NCBI GenBank assembly: GCA_045613285.1 | Contig: JAZLAQ010000035.1 | Location: 4,670 to 68,669 of the forward strand | Source: Alphaproteobacteria bacterium | Lineage (GTDB): Bacteria > Pseudomonadota > Alphaproteobacteria > CAAHEQ01 > UBA3637 | Direction of reading: 5' to 3' | Length of the DNA stretch: 64,000 bases | In this document: positions 382-35,460 of the stretch, piece by piece | Layout: every line of letters starts with the position of its first letter | Position numbering within the stretch: the first letter of the stretch is position 1 | Position numbers and translations under genes: made by a program | The notes under the pieces: generated by a model | Told to the model about the DNA's origin: nothing | The model's database searches: none | What the model saw: the letters and a program-made list of their open reading frames with translations, nothing else

Positions 382-613
382 AACTGTCCTTTCTTTATCA
401 CAAAACCTTACATAAACTAATGGCACCAATGGACGCACCCGCGTTGATTGATGTATCTCCGTAGAGACTAAAACCCTTAGCCATATTTGGAAATTGTGGT
501 TATTTTATCCTATTTACAAAGGAAAGTCAAGTCTTTTTTATCTAAAAAGTATTTTTGTACGGTTGACAAGAATATCGGAATATGATAAAAGTTTTTCCAT
601 GGAGGCTCCTAAA

Positions 614-6374: not shown

Positions 6375-6462
6375 GGGGCGTTGGCAGAGTGGTAATGCAG
6401 CGGATTGCTAATCCGTCATCCCCTAAAGGGATGCAGAGGTTCGAATCCTCTACGCCCCGCCA
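6375..6462 (+). tRNA. tRNA-Ser (anticodon GCU), class II with long variable arm, CCA encoded
   Basis: Acceptor GGGGCGT/ACGCCCC, anticodon loop TTGCTAA, T-arm AGAGGTTCGAATCCTCT, long extra arm CCCCTAAAGGGATG. Confidence 0.9.
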
Positions 6463-28107: not shown

Positions 28108-30540
28108 TTATGGTGCCCGTTGCAAATATGCCTGAACCAATGCATCCGTATCATTCAGTTGCGCGGATAATTGTTCAGCTAATAACACGTTTTTGTTACC
28201 TGATGAATAGACCTTTAAGTAAGGACCTAAACCGGATAAGTCTACATCCAGAATAACTGATTCATGAATGGCGGGACGGCTGACTAAAATAGCATATTTA
28301 TGGTTTGCAAATTCTTTTCCCATCACAAAGTTCATTTCACGGGGTGAGAGGTTCCATGATGCATAGTCTGCCGGGTTGGCTTGTGGGTTCCGGAAGAAAA
28401 CGACAGTTTGACATTGACCGCGAATAACATCGCCCAGTCCATGATCGTCTAAAAATTTTGGTTGTTGGAAGGCACAAAGGAAAGCTTGTCTCTTTTTACG
28501 ACCTTCTCGCAGACCAACGATAAAACTGTCTTTAAACATTTCATGTTCCAACATCGGGGCAGTTTCGTCAATCATAATCATGGTTGGCGTTCCCTTTTGT
28601 GTGGCCAGTGTATGAATCCGGTGCATAACATAACTGATGACCGCTGGTGATAAAGTACCATCTTGGAATATTGTTGTGAAATCAAATCCCATATAACGGG
28701 AATCCAAATCCAAGTTGTCTTCCAACGAATTGAAAATCCGACCATATTGGTCATCATCTACCCAACGTAATAATTCACGACGCATATAACTGCCGTTTGA
28801 AAAGCAACTCTTATATAAATTTTTAAGTAAACGTTCTTCGGGTTTTAAATATTCAAAAGCAGTCGTAACGGCACGGGCAATTTCTTGTTCGGAAACAGAA
28901 TCTTTTCCACCGGTAATATCACGAAGCCATGTTCTTAAAAACGAACGATTTTCTGGTGTGTCTGGAATGGCAAACGGGTTCAAGGATACCGAATCGGCAC
29001 CACCATCAAATTTAACATAAGGGGCTCCTTGCATTAAAGCAAAGACTTTTGCACCGTTATTTCTGTCAAAGAAGTAAACGTTTAAATCAGGAATACGGAG
29101 AGCTTGTCCTGCCATAAACGAGAAGAAAGTTGTTTTACCTTGCCCTGTTGGACCAATGAGTGCCGTGTGGGCAACAGCATAAGCATCTTCAGATACGTGG
29201 AATTGAAAAGCATAAGGCGTTCCTGTTATTGTTCTGAAATACGATAACGGAACCGGACCCCAGTCAGATTTTTGTCGACCTTCGGCAATTTTATCCATAC
29301 AAACAGCACAGGCTACCACACGGGATAAATATAGGAATGTTCGCGGATAAATGTCATAAGTCGGTAGCTGGGCGAAGAAAGAAGATTGTGCTGACCAACC
29401 GTCACGTACCGGTGTGACGTTGTGAATGCGACATATTTTTTCAACTTCTTCTTGTCCGAACTTTAATTCTTCTTTAGAGTCTCCGAAAATGAAAACATTC
29501 ATGGAATATTCGTTTAGAGTCTGACCGTCGGCATCTGACTGATCTAACCATTCCAAAGCTGTTGTATATTGGTTATAAACGTTTTGTGAAAATGTTGTTA
29601 AAAAGGCCATTTTTCTTTGTTGAACCAATAACATATTCGCTTTTGTTGTAGGAATAGCTTTGATATTGTGCAAGATATTCAATTCACAGTCAATGGACAT
29701 AATATCTGCTATCATTTGCTCATCCATAAAGTCACCAGGTTTTCGGATAGCCATAATGATACCCAGTTTTTCTTTATCTCCGGAAAAGAAACGGATTATA
29801 CCGTCATCTTTTGTAAAGTGGATATAATCAGCTGTCAGTAAATCATTTAATGTTTGTCCGTTTTCTCCATGAATAATGGGCTTGGGACGTGAAACAGGAC
29901 TGAGTAAATGTGCAAATAACCAGAACGGACTTTTGTCGTGCGTTCTCTCCGGTGCTTTTTCAGAAATAACACGTGGTTGATACATATCCAAAATAGTTGT
30001 TGTTGCACTGGTAGCCTGATCTAAATCTTTTAATGCATTTTTTCGATCATTGACAGATAAAATAATATAATGTCTGTTTCTAAAAATACGATGTAAACTG
30101 TCTAGCCAACGGGTTGAAACGGCTTTTAACAAAGGCTCTTTTTTGAAGGCGTCTTTTTCTGATAATGGAACTTTTTCACGTACGGTAATCAAACGAGCTG
30201 TAATTTCCAATTCAGCTAACGAATCAATCCATTGTTTTCTGGCACTGGCAAAAGCAACCCGTTCTTCAGGTAAAACTAAAGTAGTATCTGCACCTTCTAC
30301 TTCCAAAACACGACATAAAGAATTTGTTCTTAGGTGGATGGTTGCTCCATCTTCATCCAAACGATTGAAAGGTAAAAAATCAGCAACGCGTGTTTCCTTT
30401 GGCTTAGGTAAAATCTTATCCCCTAATTTTGTGACAAATGTCGTGGCGATTAACATAGCCGAGATGATACAAATAATTAAAACCCAAGTCACACCAGAAC
30501 CAGCTGTCTGCCATAGCATACTGAAAAGATTCTCTTCCAT
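28108..30540 (-). CDS. virB4: Type IV secretion system ATPase VirB4
   Basis: 810 aa; Walker [11 protein letters not shown], Walker [12 protein letters not shown], VirB4/CagE family N-domain. Confidence 0.92.
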
Positions 30541-30558: not shown

Positions 30559-30855
30559 TTAAGAAGCAAACTTGTCCCCGCGACTGCGGTATATATTTTT
30601 AGACGGCATTAAAAACGGACCGTAAGACTGCATCATTTTTGACATATGTGGTTCTTTTGTTCCATAAACAACCAAGATAATATGTACAACTAAAAATGTA
30701 AACATAAACATTAATGGATTGACTTTCCCCGGGAAAGCCCCTTGAAATACGCACATCAGAGCCATTTGGACACTGAAATTAACGACCATTGGCAACATTG
30801 GTGCCCAAAAGACTTTTGGTGGCATGGAAACTGCTTTTAAAATCGGTTCTCGCAT
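30559..30855 (-). CDS. virB3: Type IV secretion system protein VirB3
   Basis: 98-aa two-TM protein, MREPILKAVSMPPKVFWAPMLPMVVNFSVQMAL…; immediately upstream of virB4. Confidence 0.85.
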   Translation of the reverse strand: MREPILKAVSMPPKVFWAPMLPMVVNFSVQMALMCVFQGAFPGKVNPLMFMFTFLVVHIILVVYGTKEPHMSKMMQSYGPFLMPSKNIYRSRGDKFAS

Positions 30856-30931: not shown

Positions 30932-32047
30932 TTACCGTTTTTTTAAACAAACCATTGATGAAATGTTATTTGAAAGAAATAAAAACGTTCTCGGCCATAT
31001 GGTTTTGTTCGGAAATTGTGTCAGAAAAAGAGCTTTATTCAGATTTTTTTCACAAAAACCCTGATAACCATAACGTTTCAAAATAGCCGTAATTTGTTTT
31101 CTTAAAAAATCCAAATCCGATAAAGTTGAAGCTTTGACACCGATAGATAACATGTAACTATTCAAAGAAGATCCGTTTTGAAGTGCAATCAATGCATTTT
31201 TATATTGATCATAAATATGTTGGGAAAATGTTGTAAAAAGTGCCATTTTTTGCTGTTGGATTAAAAGTAGATTTGCTACGTCCTTTTGTATGGTTTCAAT
31301 ATGATGTTGTATAAATACCCGTGGTCCTAAATTTAAAATTTCAGTCAACATATCAGGTTCTGAAAAATCACCCAAATTTTGAATTCCGACAAAACCAAGA
31401 TACGTATTATCAGGTAATTGAATGAGTTTTTCTTTCTTTTGGAAAATGGTTCTGCCGTTTAAAATATCCCATAAATGCTTTGTTTCAAAAGAATCTGTTT
31501 CTTGTGGCCAAGCCGAACTTAATGCAGATAGTGTATAACGAACGCAATAATCTAAATCATTTTTATGTTCCAAAGGCGTCGAAAGAACAAGAATGTCTTT
31601 TTTATCAGGTGATTGTTGTATTTGAATTCTGAAGGGGTAAACCTGTATTTGTTCCAACCATCTTTGAAAGTCTACTGTTGAATTCAGTCCGTGTTTAAAA
31701 GAAATGCAACGTACAACACGATTGTCCCTGGTTATTAATGCGCCATTTTCTTCCCGTATTTTTAGGGTATCGTTTTTCAAGGTGTCTTTGTTCCAATGTT
31801 CTATAACGCCGCCAAATGATTGCATAATTTTGGATAAATGCGGTTCTTTCCTGCTATATATCACCAAGAAAATATGTACGATTACAAAAGACCAGACAAA
31901 AAAATCTGGTATTATTCGGCCAGGGAAAGCCCCTTGAAGCATGACCATAATTGCCATTTGGACAGAAAAATTCGTCACCATCGGCAACATCGGTACCCCA
32001 AAAACACGTGGTGGTATTGCAACTGCTTTTAAAATCGGTTCTTTCAT
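30932..32047 (-). CDS. Truncated VirB3-VirB4(N-domain) fusion paralog lacking the ATPase domain
   Basis: Residues 1-80 are collinear with VirB3 (MKEPILKAVAIPPRVFGVPMLPMVTNFSVQMAI…) and the remainder aligns to the VirB4 N-terminal domain (…TFSQHIYDQY…FLFLSNN vs VirB4 [10 protein letters not shown]…FLYLSRV); ends before Walker A. Confidence 0.7.
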   Translation of the reverse strand: MKEPILKAVAIPPRVFGVPMLPMVTNFSVQMAIMVMLQGAFPGRIIPDFFVWSFVIVHIFLVIYSRKEPHLSKIMQSFGGVIEHWNKDTLKNDTLKIREENGALITRDNRVVRCISFKHGLNSTVDFQRWLEQIQVYPFRIQIQQSPDKKDILVLSTPLEHKNDLDYCVRYTLSALSSAWPQETDSFETKHLWDILNGRTIFQKKEKLIQLPDNTYLGFVGIQNLGDFSEPDMLTEILNLGPRVFIQHHIETIQKDVANLLLIQQQKMALFTTFSQHIYDQYKNALIALQNGSSLNSYMLSIGVKASTLSDLDFLRKQITAILKRYGYQGFCEKNLNKALFLTQFPNKTIWPRTFLFLSNNISSMVCLKKR

Positions 32048-32160
32048 TTTATACCTCTATAGCCTCATTCTAACGATTTTTTTTATAAATGCAAGTATAA
32101 TGATTTAAACTATAAATTTTCTTCAACAGTATTGAAATATTTTTTTTGTCATCTTTTTTG

Positions 32161-32189
32161 TTGACAATATTTAATTTTGGGTGTAAAAT
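32161..32189 (+). promoter_or_regulatory. Sigma70-like promoter (TTGACA-17-TAAAAT) upstream of HNH gene
   Basis: Consensus -35, 17-nt spacer, A/T-rich -10; about 30 nt upstream of the 32221 start. Confidence 0.35.
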
Positions 32190-32220
32190 ACGAAAATAAA
32201 CAAAAAATAGTGGGGAAAAA

Positions 32221-33447
32221 ATGGAATTTGAAAAAGCATGTAGTTTATGTAGCAAAGAATTTGAATTAACGAATACACCATTGTTTATTCAGTTTTTTAA
32301 TCGAAAGGTGTCTGCGTTATTCAGTATTCCCGGAAAAACGGCTGACGATGTAAGGATAAAGAAAATTCGATATACTCCGGTAGAACATGGACTGCTTAGC
32401 AGTGGCAGTGTTTCGAAAGAAAAAAGAAGCTTATTCTTTGTTCCGGATGATATGCAAAAAAAAATGTTGCAACATTTCTTAAAACGGGGCATATTGCAAA
32501 AACACTTTCCGGAAGATGTCGTTAAAGCTGCGGAAAATGGGAATAAACCAAGTTTATATCATTTTGCTTGGATTGTTCCACCGTATTTAGGTGGCAGAAT
32601 GGATAGCAGAAATATATTTTTGGTTCAAAATCACGCATTGGCTGGGTTAAAGCATCTGATTTGGTATCCGTTAGAAAAATCTATGAAAGAAACCATGGCG
32701 AGTGATAAGTTTAAATATATTAATTTTCAGTTTCATGAATTTCCGAAAGTATTCCATTTTAGCGATTTAGAACAATTTTGTGCTAGTAATTTGGATTACC
32801 AAAAACGCTTTATGCATAGATTAAATCTGATAGAAAAAAGTGCAAAAATCAAAATTCAAGATGAAGGTAAGTGCCTTGTTTTAAAGGCTACTGAACATCC
32901 ATTTTTATCTTCGCCTGTTTTAAGAATTCAGTTGCATGATCCAATACCTAATGCTCGGGATGATTTTTATGCGGATGTTCATTTAAAGAAGAAAGTTCGT
33001 CAAAGGGATGCTAGCTTATTGGCACATTTAGGAAAAGATGAACGGCTGGAAATGTCATGTAAAGGAACTGTACCATCAAGATTGCAGTTTGAATTTCATC
33101 ATATTGTCCCTTTGGAATTTGGTGGTAGAAATTGTCTGGAAAATATTTGTATGGTTACACATGATATTCATATCCGTTTTAATGAGACGGTAGAAAAACC
33201 TTTAAGGCAATTTTTGGAGCGTCATCCGGCTATGAAAAAAGCCTCTTATAACGGTAAAGAAATTTTTGTTGAAATACCTGTTCCGATGGTTTCATATCAA
33301 GATGCCGATGTGGATCTAAGTAAAGTTAAAAAAGTAAAAAAAACACACACAAAGTATGAACGGCGTAATTTACGTCGGAAAGAAAAAACAAGTTTATCTT
33401 TGGCACTAAAATATGGTGATTTGGATATTGTTTATACCAGACAATAA
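32221..33447 (+). CDS. HNH endonuclease-domain protein with unknown ~290-aa N-domain and polybasic C-tail
   Basis: HNH motif EFHHIVPLEFGGRNCLENICMVTHDIHIRFN; C-terminus KVKKVKKTHTKYERRNLRRKEK; 408 aa. Confidence 0.7.
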   Translation: MEFEKACSLCSKEFELTNTPLFIQFFNRKVSALFSIPGKTADDVRIKKIRYTPVEHGLLSSGSVSKEKRSLFFVPDDMQKKMLQHFLKRGILQKHFPEDVVKAAENGNKPSLYHFAWIVPPYLGGRMDSRNIFLVQNHALAGLKHLIWYPLEKSMKETMASDKFKYINFQFHEFPKVFHFSDLEQFCASNLDYQKRFMHRLNLIEKSAKIKIQDEGKCLVLKATEHPFLSSPVLRIQLHDPIPNARDDFYADVHLKKKVRQRDASLLAHLGKDERLEMSCKGTVPSRLQFEFHHIVPLEFGGRNCLENICMVTHDIHIRFNETVEKPLRQFLERHPAMKKASYNGKEIFVEIPVPMVSYQDADVDLSKVKKVKKTHTKYERRNLRRKEKTSLSLALKYGDLDIVYTRQ

Positions 33448-33534
33448 AGTCTTTGACTTTTTCAACAAAAAAGCGTATAATCAAAACCGGCCCGTTGTAT
33501 GGGTCGGTTTATTTATTTAGAAAAGGAATTTAAA

Positions 33535-35460
33535 ATGATTGAAATTACGTTGCCCGATGGGGCTAAAATGCAATTTGATTCGCCGGTGTCTGGCTTACAG
33601 ATTGCGCAAAAAATTAGTGAAGGTTTAGCAAAAGCTGCCGTTGCCGTTCAGGTGGACGGAACGTTAACCGATTTAACAACCCCGATTACAACAAATGCAA
33701 CCGTTTCAATCATAACAACACGCAATTCGGAAGCACTGACCGTTTTGCGCCACACAACGGCACATATCTTGGCACAAGCTGTTAAAAATTTATACCCTAA
33801 TGCTTTGGTGACTATCGGACCGGCGGTTGAAAACGGCTTTTATTACGATTTCTTCGGCATTATTTTAAAGGAAGAAGATTTACCCAAAATTGAAGCCGAA
33901 ATGCAAAAAATCATTGATGCAGACTTACCCATTACCCGCTTGGAAGTTTCTTGGGAAGAAGCGCGTCAGTTATTCATTGATAAAGGCGAAAAATACAAGG
34001 TTGAACTGATTGACGATTTACCCGAAGACACAACAACCGTTTCCCTTTATACTCAAGGCGATTATGTTGAACTATGTCGCGGTCCGCACTTATCATCCAC
34101 GGGGAAAGTCGGTAAAGCCTTTAAGTTAACCAAAGTTGCCGCTTCTTACTGGCGCGGGGACGCAACAAAAGAATCTTTACAACGTGTCTATGGAACGGCT
34201 TTTTGGACGGAAAAAGATATGAAAGCTTATTTCACTTTATTGGAAGAAGCTGAAAAACGCGATCACCGAAAACTGGGTAAAGAAATGGATTTATTCCACT
34301 TTGAAGAATACGCCCCGGGTGATGTTTTCTGGCATCCGCGCGGTTGGACGTTCTTCCAAACCCTTATCGGTTATATGCGTCGTCGCCAATTAGCAGAAGG
34401 CTATGTTGAAATCAACACACCGCAAATCATGGATAAAGTTCTGTGGGAAACATCCGGACACTGGGAATGGTATCGTGAAAATATGTACACCACAACCATC
34501 GAAGAAAAAACATTTGCGATTAAGCCGATGAACTGCCCCGGTGGTGTTTTAACGTTTAAACAGGGTATCACCAGTTATCGTGATTTACCACGCCGTATTG
34601 CTGAATTCGGGCGGGTTCATCGCTATGAAGCATCGGGTGCTTTACATGGCCTGTTGCGGGTTCGTGCCTTTACACAGGATGATGCCCATATTTTCTGCAC
34701 ACCTGAACAGTTTAAAGAAGAAAGCCAACGCGTTGTTCGCTTTATGTTGGACATTTATAAAGACTTTGGCTTAAAAGACGTCAATATCAAATTGTCCACA
34801 CGACCCAAAGAAAGAATCGGAACGGACGAAATTTGGGATATGTTGGAAGAAGGCCTTGCTAATGCCTTAACCGAGATGGGATATAAATACACCGTTAACC
34901 CCGGCGATGGCGCTTTCTATGGTCCGAAATTAGACTTTAAACTCAAAGATGCCATCGGTCGTGAATGGCAACTCGGAACACTTCAGGCTGACTTAAACCT
35001 GCCCGAAAGGTTTGACGTCACTTATATCGGCGAAGACGGACAAAAACATCGTCCGATAATGTTGCACCGTGCTTTGTTCGGCTCACTAGAACGTTTCTCG
35101 GGTGTTTTAATTGAACATTGTGCGGGGGCTTTCCCCTTCTGGCTGGCACCGGTTCAGGTGGTCGTTGCACCGATTTCATCCGAGCAAGATGCCTATGTTA
35201 AAGAAATCGCGCATAGACTTTTTGTTGCTGGCATTCGTGTTGAAACGGATTTACGTAATGAAAAGATTAGTTATAAAGTCCGCGAACACTCGCTTAAGAA
35301 AGTGCCTGTCATTTTGGTTGTCGGTGCGAAAGAAGTGGAAAACAAAACTGTTACCATTCGCAGACTCGGTTCCGATAAACAACAGGTTATCCCGTTTGAA
35401 GAAGCGCTCAAGCAATTCAAATTGGATGCCCGTTTCCCAAGCGTAGAATACGACGATTAA
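33535..35460 (+). CDS. thrS: Threonine--tRNA ligase
   Basis: Start at [10 protein letters not shown] (TGS domain); class II motifs ([26 protein letters not shown]), anticodon-binding C-domain. Confidence 0.95.
   Translation: [641 protein letters not shown]

Follow-up and report, generated by a model that had tools for sequence, protein, structure and literature searches.

The DNase domains of pyocins AP41 and S2 and of colicins E7 and E9 carry the HNH motif (F/Y)E-x-HH-x-x-P-x-x-x-GG ... N ... H-x3-(H/N), are joined to receptor-binding and translocation domains, and are encoded beside an Im-type immunity gene. The same motif occurs in the product of gene X, an open reading frame (ORF) of 408 amino acids at positions 32221–33447 (forward strand, ATG to stop) of a 64,000-nucleotide stretch of DNA from an Alphaproteobacteria bacterium (assembly GCA_045613285.1, contig JAZLAQ010000035.1, positions 4,670 to 68,669), referred to here as the window. 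It is firmly established, as judged from sequence comparison, that gene X encodes a tandem of a catalytically dead and a live HNH unit related to the bacteriocin DNase domains, the second unit being apparently active. Fold and motif assign the protein to the HNH superfamily, and the pyocin/colicin DNase domain appears to be its nearest sub-family. X differs from these bacteriocins in that its unit is doubled, one copy being dead; in the clade to which X belongs the last metal-ligand histidine is replaced by asparagine; and X carries in addition a beta-sheet sub-domain and a basic C-terminal extension. Receptor-binding and translocation domains are missing, the N-terminal half being the dead HNH unit, and no Im-type immunity gene adjoins the gene, which is chromosomal and occupies a fixed slot in gut Alphaproteobacteria of reduced GC content.

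Other HNH proteins are comparable over shorter stretches. Cas8f-HNH, EcoKMcrA, the Gme HNH nickase and the HNH domain of ZRANB3 share the fold and the His/Asn/His positions with the second unit of X; however, X lacks the partner domains that belong to such systems (Cascade, a 5mC reader, a helicase). Free-standing homing endonucleases of phages, such as T4 MobE and I-HmuI, resemble X in having their own promoter, in forming a discrete cassette and in the existence of degenerate copies, and differ from it in their NUMOD and IENR modules; X, moreover, has been retained for a long time under purifying selection. The literature searched contains no description of the X family or of a single-chain, dead-plus-live tandem of bacteriocin-type DNase units, which appears to be a new arrangement within the known HNH nuclease superfamily.

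A further comparison is suggested by the position of gene X beside virB3 and virB4, genes of a type IV secretion system (T4SS). Like the VirB/D4 substrates VirE2, VirD2 and VirF of Agrobacterium and RalF and RARP-2 of Rickettsia, X has no evident signal peptide, its conserved C-terminal region is positively charged and predicted to be flexible, and T4SS genes lie next to its own gene. The C-terminal tails of RalF and RARP-2 bind RvhD4 (PMC11077975). In contrast to these substrates, the Arg/Lys cluster of X lies 20–40 residues from the end and the end itself is acidic and aromatic. Unlike the X-Tfe effectors of Xanthomonadales, X has no XVIPCD (Pfam, E up to 1) and no adjacent small immunity gene, nor was its sequence found to resemble that of any known effector.

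Architecture of the gene X product

The preliminary description of the window had reported a reading frame of 408 amino acids and quoted an HNH motif; both are exactly as it gave them, the motif HHIVPLEFGGRNCLENICMVTHDIH corresponding to residues 293–317. The assignment to HNH nucleases stands as regards the complete catalytic set of the second unit and needs qualification as regards X taken alone, for which Pfam returns HNH_5 (PF14279) at 21.8 bits against a cut-off of 27.5 and HNH (PF01844) at 16.6 against 21.4, both sub-threshold, and nothing else at E values up to 1. A PDB search with X alone likewise produced only sub-threshold HNH matches. Certain relatives do exceed the PF01844 cut-off, namely P0003 and the protein of locus L018 (26.3 bits each) and P0018 (23.7 bits). 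The HNH match of X is solid only with a family profile, because this profile matches the pyocin AP41 DNase, its best solved relative, with an E value of 2.2e-6 over 69 positions. Profile positions 236–304 align to AP41 residues 49–129, including the helices before the beta-beta-alpha core, and the AP41 stretch aligned to the HNH motif of X is FEIHHVVPLESGG...NLVIVTPKRHSEIH. The HNH region of a group II intron maturase/reverse transcriptase, Cas8f-HNH and EcoKMcrA (E 8e-4) follow, and after them come colicin E7 (E 5e-3) and colicin E9 (E 0.2). The NCBIfam IscB model was considered and rejected as an identity for X, since the match (E 3.6e-4, 19.7 bits against a cut-off of 175) reflects similarity of the HNH core only.

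The N-terminal region of about 290 residues, initially regarded as an unknown domain, proves to be a second, degenerate copy of the HNH unit found towards the C-terminus. Alignment of residues 62–185 with residues 240–362 by hhalign gives a probability of 98.2% (E 5e-14), and comparison of the whole halves extends over 140 columns (residues ~22–173 against ~209–354; 98.2%, E 4e-14). The beta-sheet sub-domains are not significantly similar when aligned alone and align only within the whole half. The profile of the first repeat independently matches HNH domains (Cas8f-HNH, E 2e-4), and the AlphaFold2 model of X (pLDDT 83.8) shows the order of three strands, helical bundle, beta-beta-alpha module and strand twice in succession. 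Homology of this region to a housekeeping DNA repair or restriction enzyme with a conserved context unrelated to the T4SS, envisaged at the outset, was not found.

Repeat 1 (residues ~22–175, positions 32284–32745, forward strand) comprises a three-stranded sheet, a helical bundle and a degenerate beta-beta-alpha module. Its catalytic positions are occupied by A116, W117, N131, L140 and K144, so that none of the catalytic set is left and the repeat must be inactive; it is non-catalytic in all 21 aligned family members. Repeat 2 (residues ~209–362, positions 32845–33306, forward strand) is the same unit with its HNH module intact and terminates in a conserved E-x-P-V-P strand. Its catalytic motif is HH-N-H-N, formed by H293-H294, N308, H317 and N321 (positions 33097–33183, forward strand), and AlphaFold2 predicts a beta-beta-alpha metal finger with strands at residues 290–294 and 309–313 and a helix at 314–334. 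Modelled on its own, repeat 2 reaches a pLDDT of 93.2 and a pTM of 0.80, and the top Foldseek matches of this model are the DNases of pyocin S2 and colicin E9 (4qko_D and 2vlp_B; probability ~0.9), although the matches are weak (~85 aligned residues, TM-scores 0.35–0.38, E 0.05–0.08). The whole-X model has no significant structural neighbour in PDB or BFVD; the best-ranked neighbours of the X models are all HNH domains. HNH enzymes that work as monomers with one active site as a rule nick their substrate, and by analogy X probably cuts with its single active site as a nickase.

Within the 21-member alignment (A2), which gave the first hint of the internal repeat, H293, G302, N308, P353 and P355 are invariant, and the family splits according to the state of repeat 2: HH-N-H-N in the clade of X (six representatives), HH-N-H-H in P0015 and eight members of a distant clade (nine representatives), and HW-N-x-x in the clade P0009–P0014 (six representatives), which has lost the general base and a metal ligand. 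The catalytic set is thus strictly retained in 15 of the 21. Single-unit relatives also exist, one in L018, from a gut alphaproteobacterial metagenome-assembled genome (MAG; 266 amino acids, with a long basic tail), and one in Micavibrio (160 amino acids); P0008 and P0016 display three units or the reverse unit order.

That X is a real gene under purifying selection is firmly established by the same kind of evidence: relatives exist, and dN/dS against a 75%-identical orthologue (L001) is 0.11. For the same pair of loci the value for virB4 is 0.01, and for thrS, the gene downstream of X, it is 0.02 in two closer comparisons (L003 and L014). The strong promoter of its own that had been attributed to X corresponds to a sigma-70-like sequence, TTGACA-17-TAAAAT (positions 32161–32189, forward strand), which matches the consensus at 11 of 12 positions; it is a consensus match only, and statistical support is wanting, as the X region contains 5 promoter-like sites against 8.4 expected from shuffled sequence, and the site is therefore descriptive and no evidence in itself. 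A GGGG Shine-Dalgarno-like stretch can be read upstream of the ATG at 32221. The protein carries a net charge of +19. Synonymous divergence from L001 is uneven along the gene: it is saturated in the N-terminal half (pS 0.71–0.91; 32221–32760) and amounts to 0.47–0.61 in the C-terminal half (32760–33447), which comes nearer to the 0.35–0.57 of the flanking virB3 and virB4. This unevenness suggests a recombination mosaic inside the gene.

Exchange of gene X as a cassette

Comparison of the window with locus L014 firmly establishes, at the level of sequence, that lineages exchange X as a cassette with sharp boundaries. Up to position 32100, 70 of 71 bases are identical; across 32101–33445 (forward strand), a segment that holds the promoter and the whole coding sequence up to the stop codon, there is no detectable DNA similarity by blastn and alignment, L014 having an unalignable allele; and from 33446, inside the stop codon of X, identity returns at 93% over 3.3 kb. 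The threonyl-tRNA synthetases (ThrRS) encoded by the two loci are 99% identical, with a thrS dS of 0.31, and the amidohydrolases that follow are 90% identical, whereas the X proteins are about 23–30% identical, the lower figure coming from alignment A2, to the close relative P0010, and the upper from direct comparison over 359 aligned columns.

In all the loci compared X is far more diverged than its neighbours. Relative to the window, L007 has 37% identity in X against 89% in ThrRS, 89% in VirB4 and 73% in VirB3; the corresponding values are 29, 87, 81 and 72% for L009 and 25, 88, 81 and 69% for L011, and even in L001 X is 75% identical where VirB3 is 97%. Such divergence, together with replacement of the cassette, is typical of a protein that faces an external, co-evolving partner.

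The allele in L014 belongs to the catalytically dead HW clade. The six representatives of this clade are less than 50% identical to one another and yet have intact ORFs of 356–377 amino acids. Three of them have a retrieved locus, and all three occupy the slot of X: thrS follows the gene in L014 and L022, and virB3 adjoins it in L022 and L023. As dead positional orthologues stay intact, the conserved function of the family is not nuclease activity as such. The coexistence of allele swapping with a long-lived dead class, within an otherwise conserved region of the core genome, is more surprising than the idea of a T4SS toxin.

A sharply bounded unit with its own promoter, set between highly conserved genes and evidently replaced by homologous recombination, recalls a selfish element, and X could be a free-standing HNH cassette of the homing type, which would cut the virB3/thrS slot bearing another allele and be copied in by recombinational repair; the loss of catalytic residues in one clade and in the first unit would then mark alleles that are decaying or domesticated. 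This explanation is improbable. X has stayed in one slot over a period in which the identity of ThrRS fell to 84%, with a dN/dS of 0.11 for X, the dead clade is long-lived and intact, and no NUMOD, IENR or helix-turn-helix modules are found by Pfam. No empty site or pseudogene is seen among the ~10 loci, a biased sample, as all were found through X. Copies of X are also absent from phage and plasmid collections searched by tblastn, and residence on known mobile elements was accordingly discarded.

The dispensability of catalysis in one clade also bears on the possibility that X derives from a nuclease and now binds DNA with little or no catalysis, for instance as a nucleoid-associated protein or as a regulator of the virB3/virB4 operon or of thrS. 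The protein is very basic, it shares an intergenic region with virB3-type genes in divergent arrangement, and the gene of one paralogue and that of an OmpR-type response regulator overlap by 4 nucleotides. Regulators and nucleoid proteins, however, normally co-evolve slowly with their targets, and here the flanks and promoters are 93–99% identical while the X alleles are ~23–30% identical; furthermore, 15 of 21 representatives show no loss from the catalytic set. A DNA-binding role of this kind is for these reasons given little weight.

Family, carriers and genomic neighbourhood

Word-indexed homology searches recovered two or three proteins, including two close relatives, and the family was revealed by exhaustive HMMER search, which yielded ~30 cluster representatives, mostly of 356–432 amino acids. 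The family is basic throughout, with net charges from +2 to +33. Only one member has a name, P0016, annotated generically as "HNH endonuclease" (MDR2902648.1). It comes from a MAG labelled as Lactobacillales, which also contains a VirB4 (P0193) 74% identical to that of the window; this sequence is probably a mis-binned alphaproteobacterial contig. A scan of GTDB found no match with an alignment of close relatives, whereas an alignment of 21 sequences was too divergent to give patterns and one of five sequences succeeded, the matches being MAGs of uncultured Alphaproteobacteria from the human gut (Nepal, Hadza); the X locus of the window itself was not among the matches to GTDB species representatives. 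Homologues of VirB4 number at least 616. JGI metagenomes gave no match, whether scanned with protein patterns or with the DNA of the thrS leader, and carriers of X seem to be present only in gut data from ENA, Logan and NCBI. Those that can be identified belong to uncultured Alphaproteobacteria of the gut, whose VirB system is scattered in the style of Rickettsiales. No second member of the family was found within the window.

The preliminary description placed X next to, and divergent from, the virB3/virB4 cluster; this is confirmed, as a virB3-like ORF, virB3 and virB4 all lie on the minus strand, and the adjacency recurs in most lineages examined. The window and L007 share the order kdsB-HIT-ppa-virB4-virB3 on the minus strand followed by X, thrS and an amidohydrolase gene, and synteny of kdsB-HIT-ppa-virB4-virB3, X and thrS is also seen in L009, L011 and L022. 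L001 and L011 contain virB4-virB3 (minus strand), X and thrS; L022 has in addition a VirB3–VirB4N fusion like that of the window; and L014, whose sequence begins 239 nucleotides upstream of X, shows X, thrS and the amidohydrolase gene. X adjoins virB3 divergently in seven loci or lineages (the window, L001, L007, L009, L011, L022 and L023). Deviations from this arrangement are found in L023, where virB4-virB3 (minus strand) and X are followed by atpG (minus strand) and thrS is not adjacent, and in the P0003 lineage (L004–L006), where X lies between uvrA (minus strand) and thrS. Neither linkage is absolute, and X is as tightly linked to thrS as to virB3. The P0003 lineage appears to keep virB3-virB4-ppa-HIT-kdsB elsewhere, with no X-family neighbour, the loci concerned (P0092 and P0035) being linked to it by inference.

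Paralogues of a distant subfamily occupy further positions. One tandem HNH paralogue lies directly upstream of X in L009 (6834–7994, plus strand; hhalign 99.5%), between virB4-virB3 (minus strand) and X-thrS. Another is located downstream of an OmpR-type response-regulator gene, with the 4-nucleotide overlap, in L012 (6244–7449) and L013 (1602–2807, plus strand), at the place where a sensor kinase would be expected.

As noted at the outset, no cognate immunity gene is evident in the vicinity, and there is no room for one: the gaps on either side of X measure 173 nucleotides, to the virB3-like ORF, and 87 nucleotides, to the probable thrS start at 33535. In relatives the distance from the stop codon of X to thrS is 87–93 nucleotides (82 in L022), and atpG follows directly in L023. 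These gaps weigh on the interbacterial toxin suggested in the preliminary description, which can be given the form of a contact-dependent toxin, delivered by the T4SS and bearing a warhead like the bacteriocin DNases, with its immunity protein encoded elsewhere in the genome. The affinity to toxin domains holds, as the closest relatives are those of pyocins and colicins, X adjoins T4SS genes and its allelic diversity is typical of polymorphic toxins. A linked immunity gene, on the other hand, is missing, and the cassette that is swapped consists of X alone; a new toxin allele arriving without its immunity protein would kill its carrier or serve no purpose. Besides, there is no XVIPCD, no delivery domain of the Rhs, PAAR or CdiA type and no other domain in Pfam at E values up to 1, and dead alleles are maintained. 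An interbacterial toxin without linked immunity is therefore unlikely.

The C-terminal tail

The protein had been said to end in a Lys/Arg-rich tail. The basic stretch in fact covers residues 368–389 and is followed by 19 further residues (TSLSLALKYGDLDIVYTRQ). The basic C-terminal extension as a whole (residues 368–398, KVKKVKKTHTKYERRNLRRKEK..., positions 33322–33414, forward strand) contains a helix predicted with low confidence at residues 378–398 (pLDDT 56–76), and the extreme C-terminus, GDLDIVYTRQ with the stop codon (positions 33415–33447, forward strand), bears an acidic/aromatic D-x-x-Y motif and is predicted to be disordered (pLDDT below 50). Net charge is +1 for the last 20 residues, +4 for the last 30 and +7 for the last 50. 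By reading of the sequence, the tail also fits the classical bipartite nuclear localization signal (NLS) pattern KK-x10-RRKEK.

Between orthologues of 75% overall identity, conservation of the last 40 residues is 100%, while the codons for this stretch show synonymous changes at scattered places. The tail is consequently constrained at the protein level, and constraint on the DNA, through overlap with regulatory sequences of thrS, was excluded as the cause of conservation by these scattered substitutions. A pattern ERR-x-h-x-R ... D-x-x-Y is common to the HH and HW clades, and D-x-x-Y-type ends are found in P0003 (DKEY), P0004 (DFDY), P0005 (YDY), the HW clade (DHDY, EYQY and DYEY) and L018 (DDYNRE). 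The proposal that a basic tail serves as a T4SS signal thus keeps its footing in conservation of the protein sequence and gains nothing distinctive from charge, which at least six other ORFs of the window equal or exceed at their C-termini.

A candidate substrate of the type IV secretion system

The reading that ranks first, and is put forward tentatively, is that X is a DNA-targeting substrate, or effector, of the VirB-type T4SS. The protein would form an intramolecular pseudo-dimer of two units of ~180 amino acids, in each of which a small beta-sheet and a helical bundle are combined with an HNH finger of the beta-beta-alpha-metal type. Duplex DNA may be bound by the two lobes together with the basic C-terminal helix, as charge, bilobed shape and tail suggest, and cleavage by the single active site would result in nicking or in slow, non-specific cutting. 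The conserved basic helix and the acidic/aromatic C-terminus might together constitute the element recognized by the T4SS; export is a plausible prediction. X could be kept harmless in the producer by its dead first unit or by narrow demands on the substrate, and this would explain the missing immunity gene.

Several observations are in keeping with an effector. A conserved tail on a hypervariable protein, tolerance of dead alleles and a place facing virB3/virB4 all fit a partner outside the cell. The intact HW alleles are tolerated by an effector that acts by binding and not by a role as nuclease alone. Adjacency to virB3/virB4 has survived in L023 although thrS no longer adjoins X there, and T4SS genes are apparently kept in the P0003 lineage, where adjacency is lost.

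A number of points weigh against this reading. An active cytoplasmic DNase of the colicin type is expected to be toxic to its producer in the absence of an inhibitor, and autoinhibition by the dead unit is speculation. The basic stretch is not terminal and the charge of the tail is unremarkable in view of the ORFs that match it, and the tail motif does not recur in any other ORF of the window. Positive selection is not detected in the single close pair that could be used (dN/dS 0.11). The P0003 lineage has lost adjacency to virB3, the distant HH-N-H-H clade of paralogues is sited elsewhere, after a response regulator or after dnaE, and the whole neighbourhood is a conserved syntenic block, in which proximity to virB3 may be historical. 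Finally, all loci were found through X, so that slots devoid of it would have been missed.

Ranked just below the effector, and nearly as likely, is the possibility that X is an intracellular, non-secreted nuclease involved in defence or DNA processing, namely an immunity-free, McrA-like modification-dependent or structure-specific nickase that would use the dead unit as a DNA-recognition lobe and owe its hypervariability to an arms race with phages or mobile DNA. Type IV-like enzymes require neither an immunity gene nor a methylase, loci for defence or immigration control are likewise known for cassettes swapped at a fixed hot-spot between conserved genes, and a cytoplasmic location agrees with the lack of an evident signal peptide and with a T4SS linkage that is not obligatory. 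Matches to EcoKMcrA (6ghc, the E value of 8e-4 given above) and, for P0003, to mREase_IV in PADLOC (E 0.0016) point the same way, but are confined to the HNH core of ~35 residues; no modified-DNA reader domain was detected, the N-terminal half being dead HNH, and PADLOC returns no match for X itself. Defence genes, moreover, are usually patchy, whereas X is present in every lineage sampled (in loci found through X), and a dead clade of six members kept intact is unexpected for a restriction nuclease. Should X turn out to be ordinary, such as a McrA-like restriction nickase, the value of this survey would be confined to the annotation of a new HNH sub-family.

For the effector a more elaborate scheme, considerably less probable than the general reading, can also be imagined. 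X would be an immunity-free exported DNase or DNA-binding effector, with the dead unit as a built-in inhibitor or second DNA-binding lobe; the coupling protein would read the basic helix and D-x-x-Y tail; HH and HW alleles would be kept as exchangeable cassettes at the junction of the T4SS genes and thrS by frequency-dependent selection exerted by the target cell; and the NLS pattern could direct the protein to the nucleus of a eukaryote, possibly a gut protist or the host.

For Rs-D84, a possibly related gut order with reduced genomes, a partner-dependent lifestyle has been inferred (PMC12306168). The literature searched describes no substrate for the T4SS of these bacteria, and X is a concrete and testable candidate: specific to the family, fast-evolving, endowed with a conserved C-terminal element and located beside virB3/virB4. 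The fusion of a dead and a live bacteriocin-type DNase unit is noteworthy independently of secretion, and the lack of the immunity gene that such domains normally require prompts one to ask what shields the producer.

Flanking genes and the thrS leader

The ORF that faces X in the window (30932–32047, minus strand, 371 amino acids) is a paralogue in which VirB3 is fused to the N-terminal domain of VirB4, without the ATPase domain. It matches the Pfam family CagE_TrbE_VirB (E 2.4e-8) and aligns by BLASTP with VirB4 residues 231–417 (33% identity, 3e-27), its N-terminus being VirB3-like. The counterpart in L022 (8617–9792, minus strand) is a fusion of 391 amino acids that also matches the VirB4-family Pfam domain, and in L001, L007 and L011 no fusion ORF exists and a virB3 of 98 amino acids faces X directly. 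The remainder of the T4SS islet in the window, as identified by Pfam, consists of virB3 (30559–30855, minus strand) and virB4 (28108–30540, minus strand). No T4SS genes occur elsewhere in the window, which otherwise represents core chromosome, including mfd, trkA, dnaA, rpoD, dnaG, uvrA and genes for an RND pump.

The 3' boundary of the cassette is marked by the promoter of thrS, TTGACT-17-TATAAT (33453–33481, forward strand), which is followed by a leader hairpin (33484–33510, forward strand); the leader of 59 nucleotides has a folding energy of -18.4 kcal/mol (z = -3.77) and no Rfam match. The promoter is invariant and the hairpin present in the window, L001, L003, L004, L007 and L014, and variants occur in L009 and L011, where the hairpin at the same place differs in sequence and has no UGU loop. 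In the window the inner stem closes a 7-nucleotide loop, GUUGUAU, with the U33-UGU-A37 layout of the anticodon loop of tRNA-Thr(UGU), and the hairpin lies ~10 nucleotides upstream of the Shine-Dalgarno sequence of thrS. In sequence it looks like a ThrRS translational operator of the E. coli type, a mimic of the anticodon arm, and it may double as a terminator of X. The true start of thrS is probably the ATG at 33535 (MIEITLPDG), and the listed start at 33499 is probably wrong.

Elsewhere in the window, a signal recognition particle (SRP) RNA is encoded at 19401–19495 (plus strand), tRNA-Ser(GCT) at 6375–6462 and tRNA-Thr(CGT) at 18636–18711, and a borderline Rfam match to 'ffh sRNA' is found at 416–466 (minus strand; 36.1 bits against a gathering score of 35). 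An ORF of 1274 amino acids (60135–63959, minus strand) combines an AcrB-type RND transporter (Pfam ACR_tran, profile positions 230–1020) with a C-terminal, TolC-like OEP domain: such a fusion of RND and outer-membrane factor is unusual, and its N-terminus is possibly cut by the end of the window or by a frameshift.

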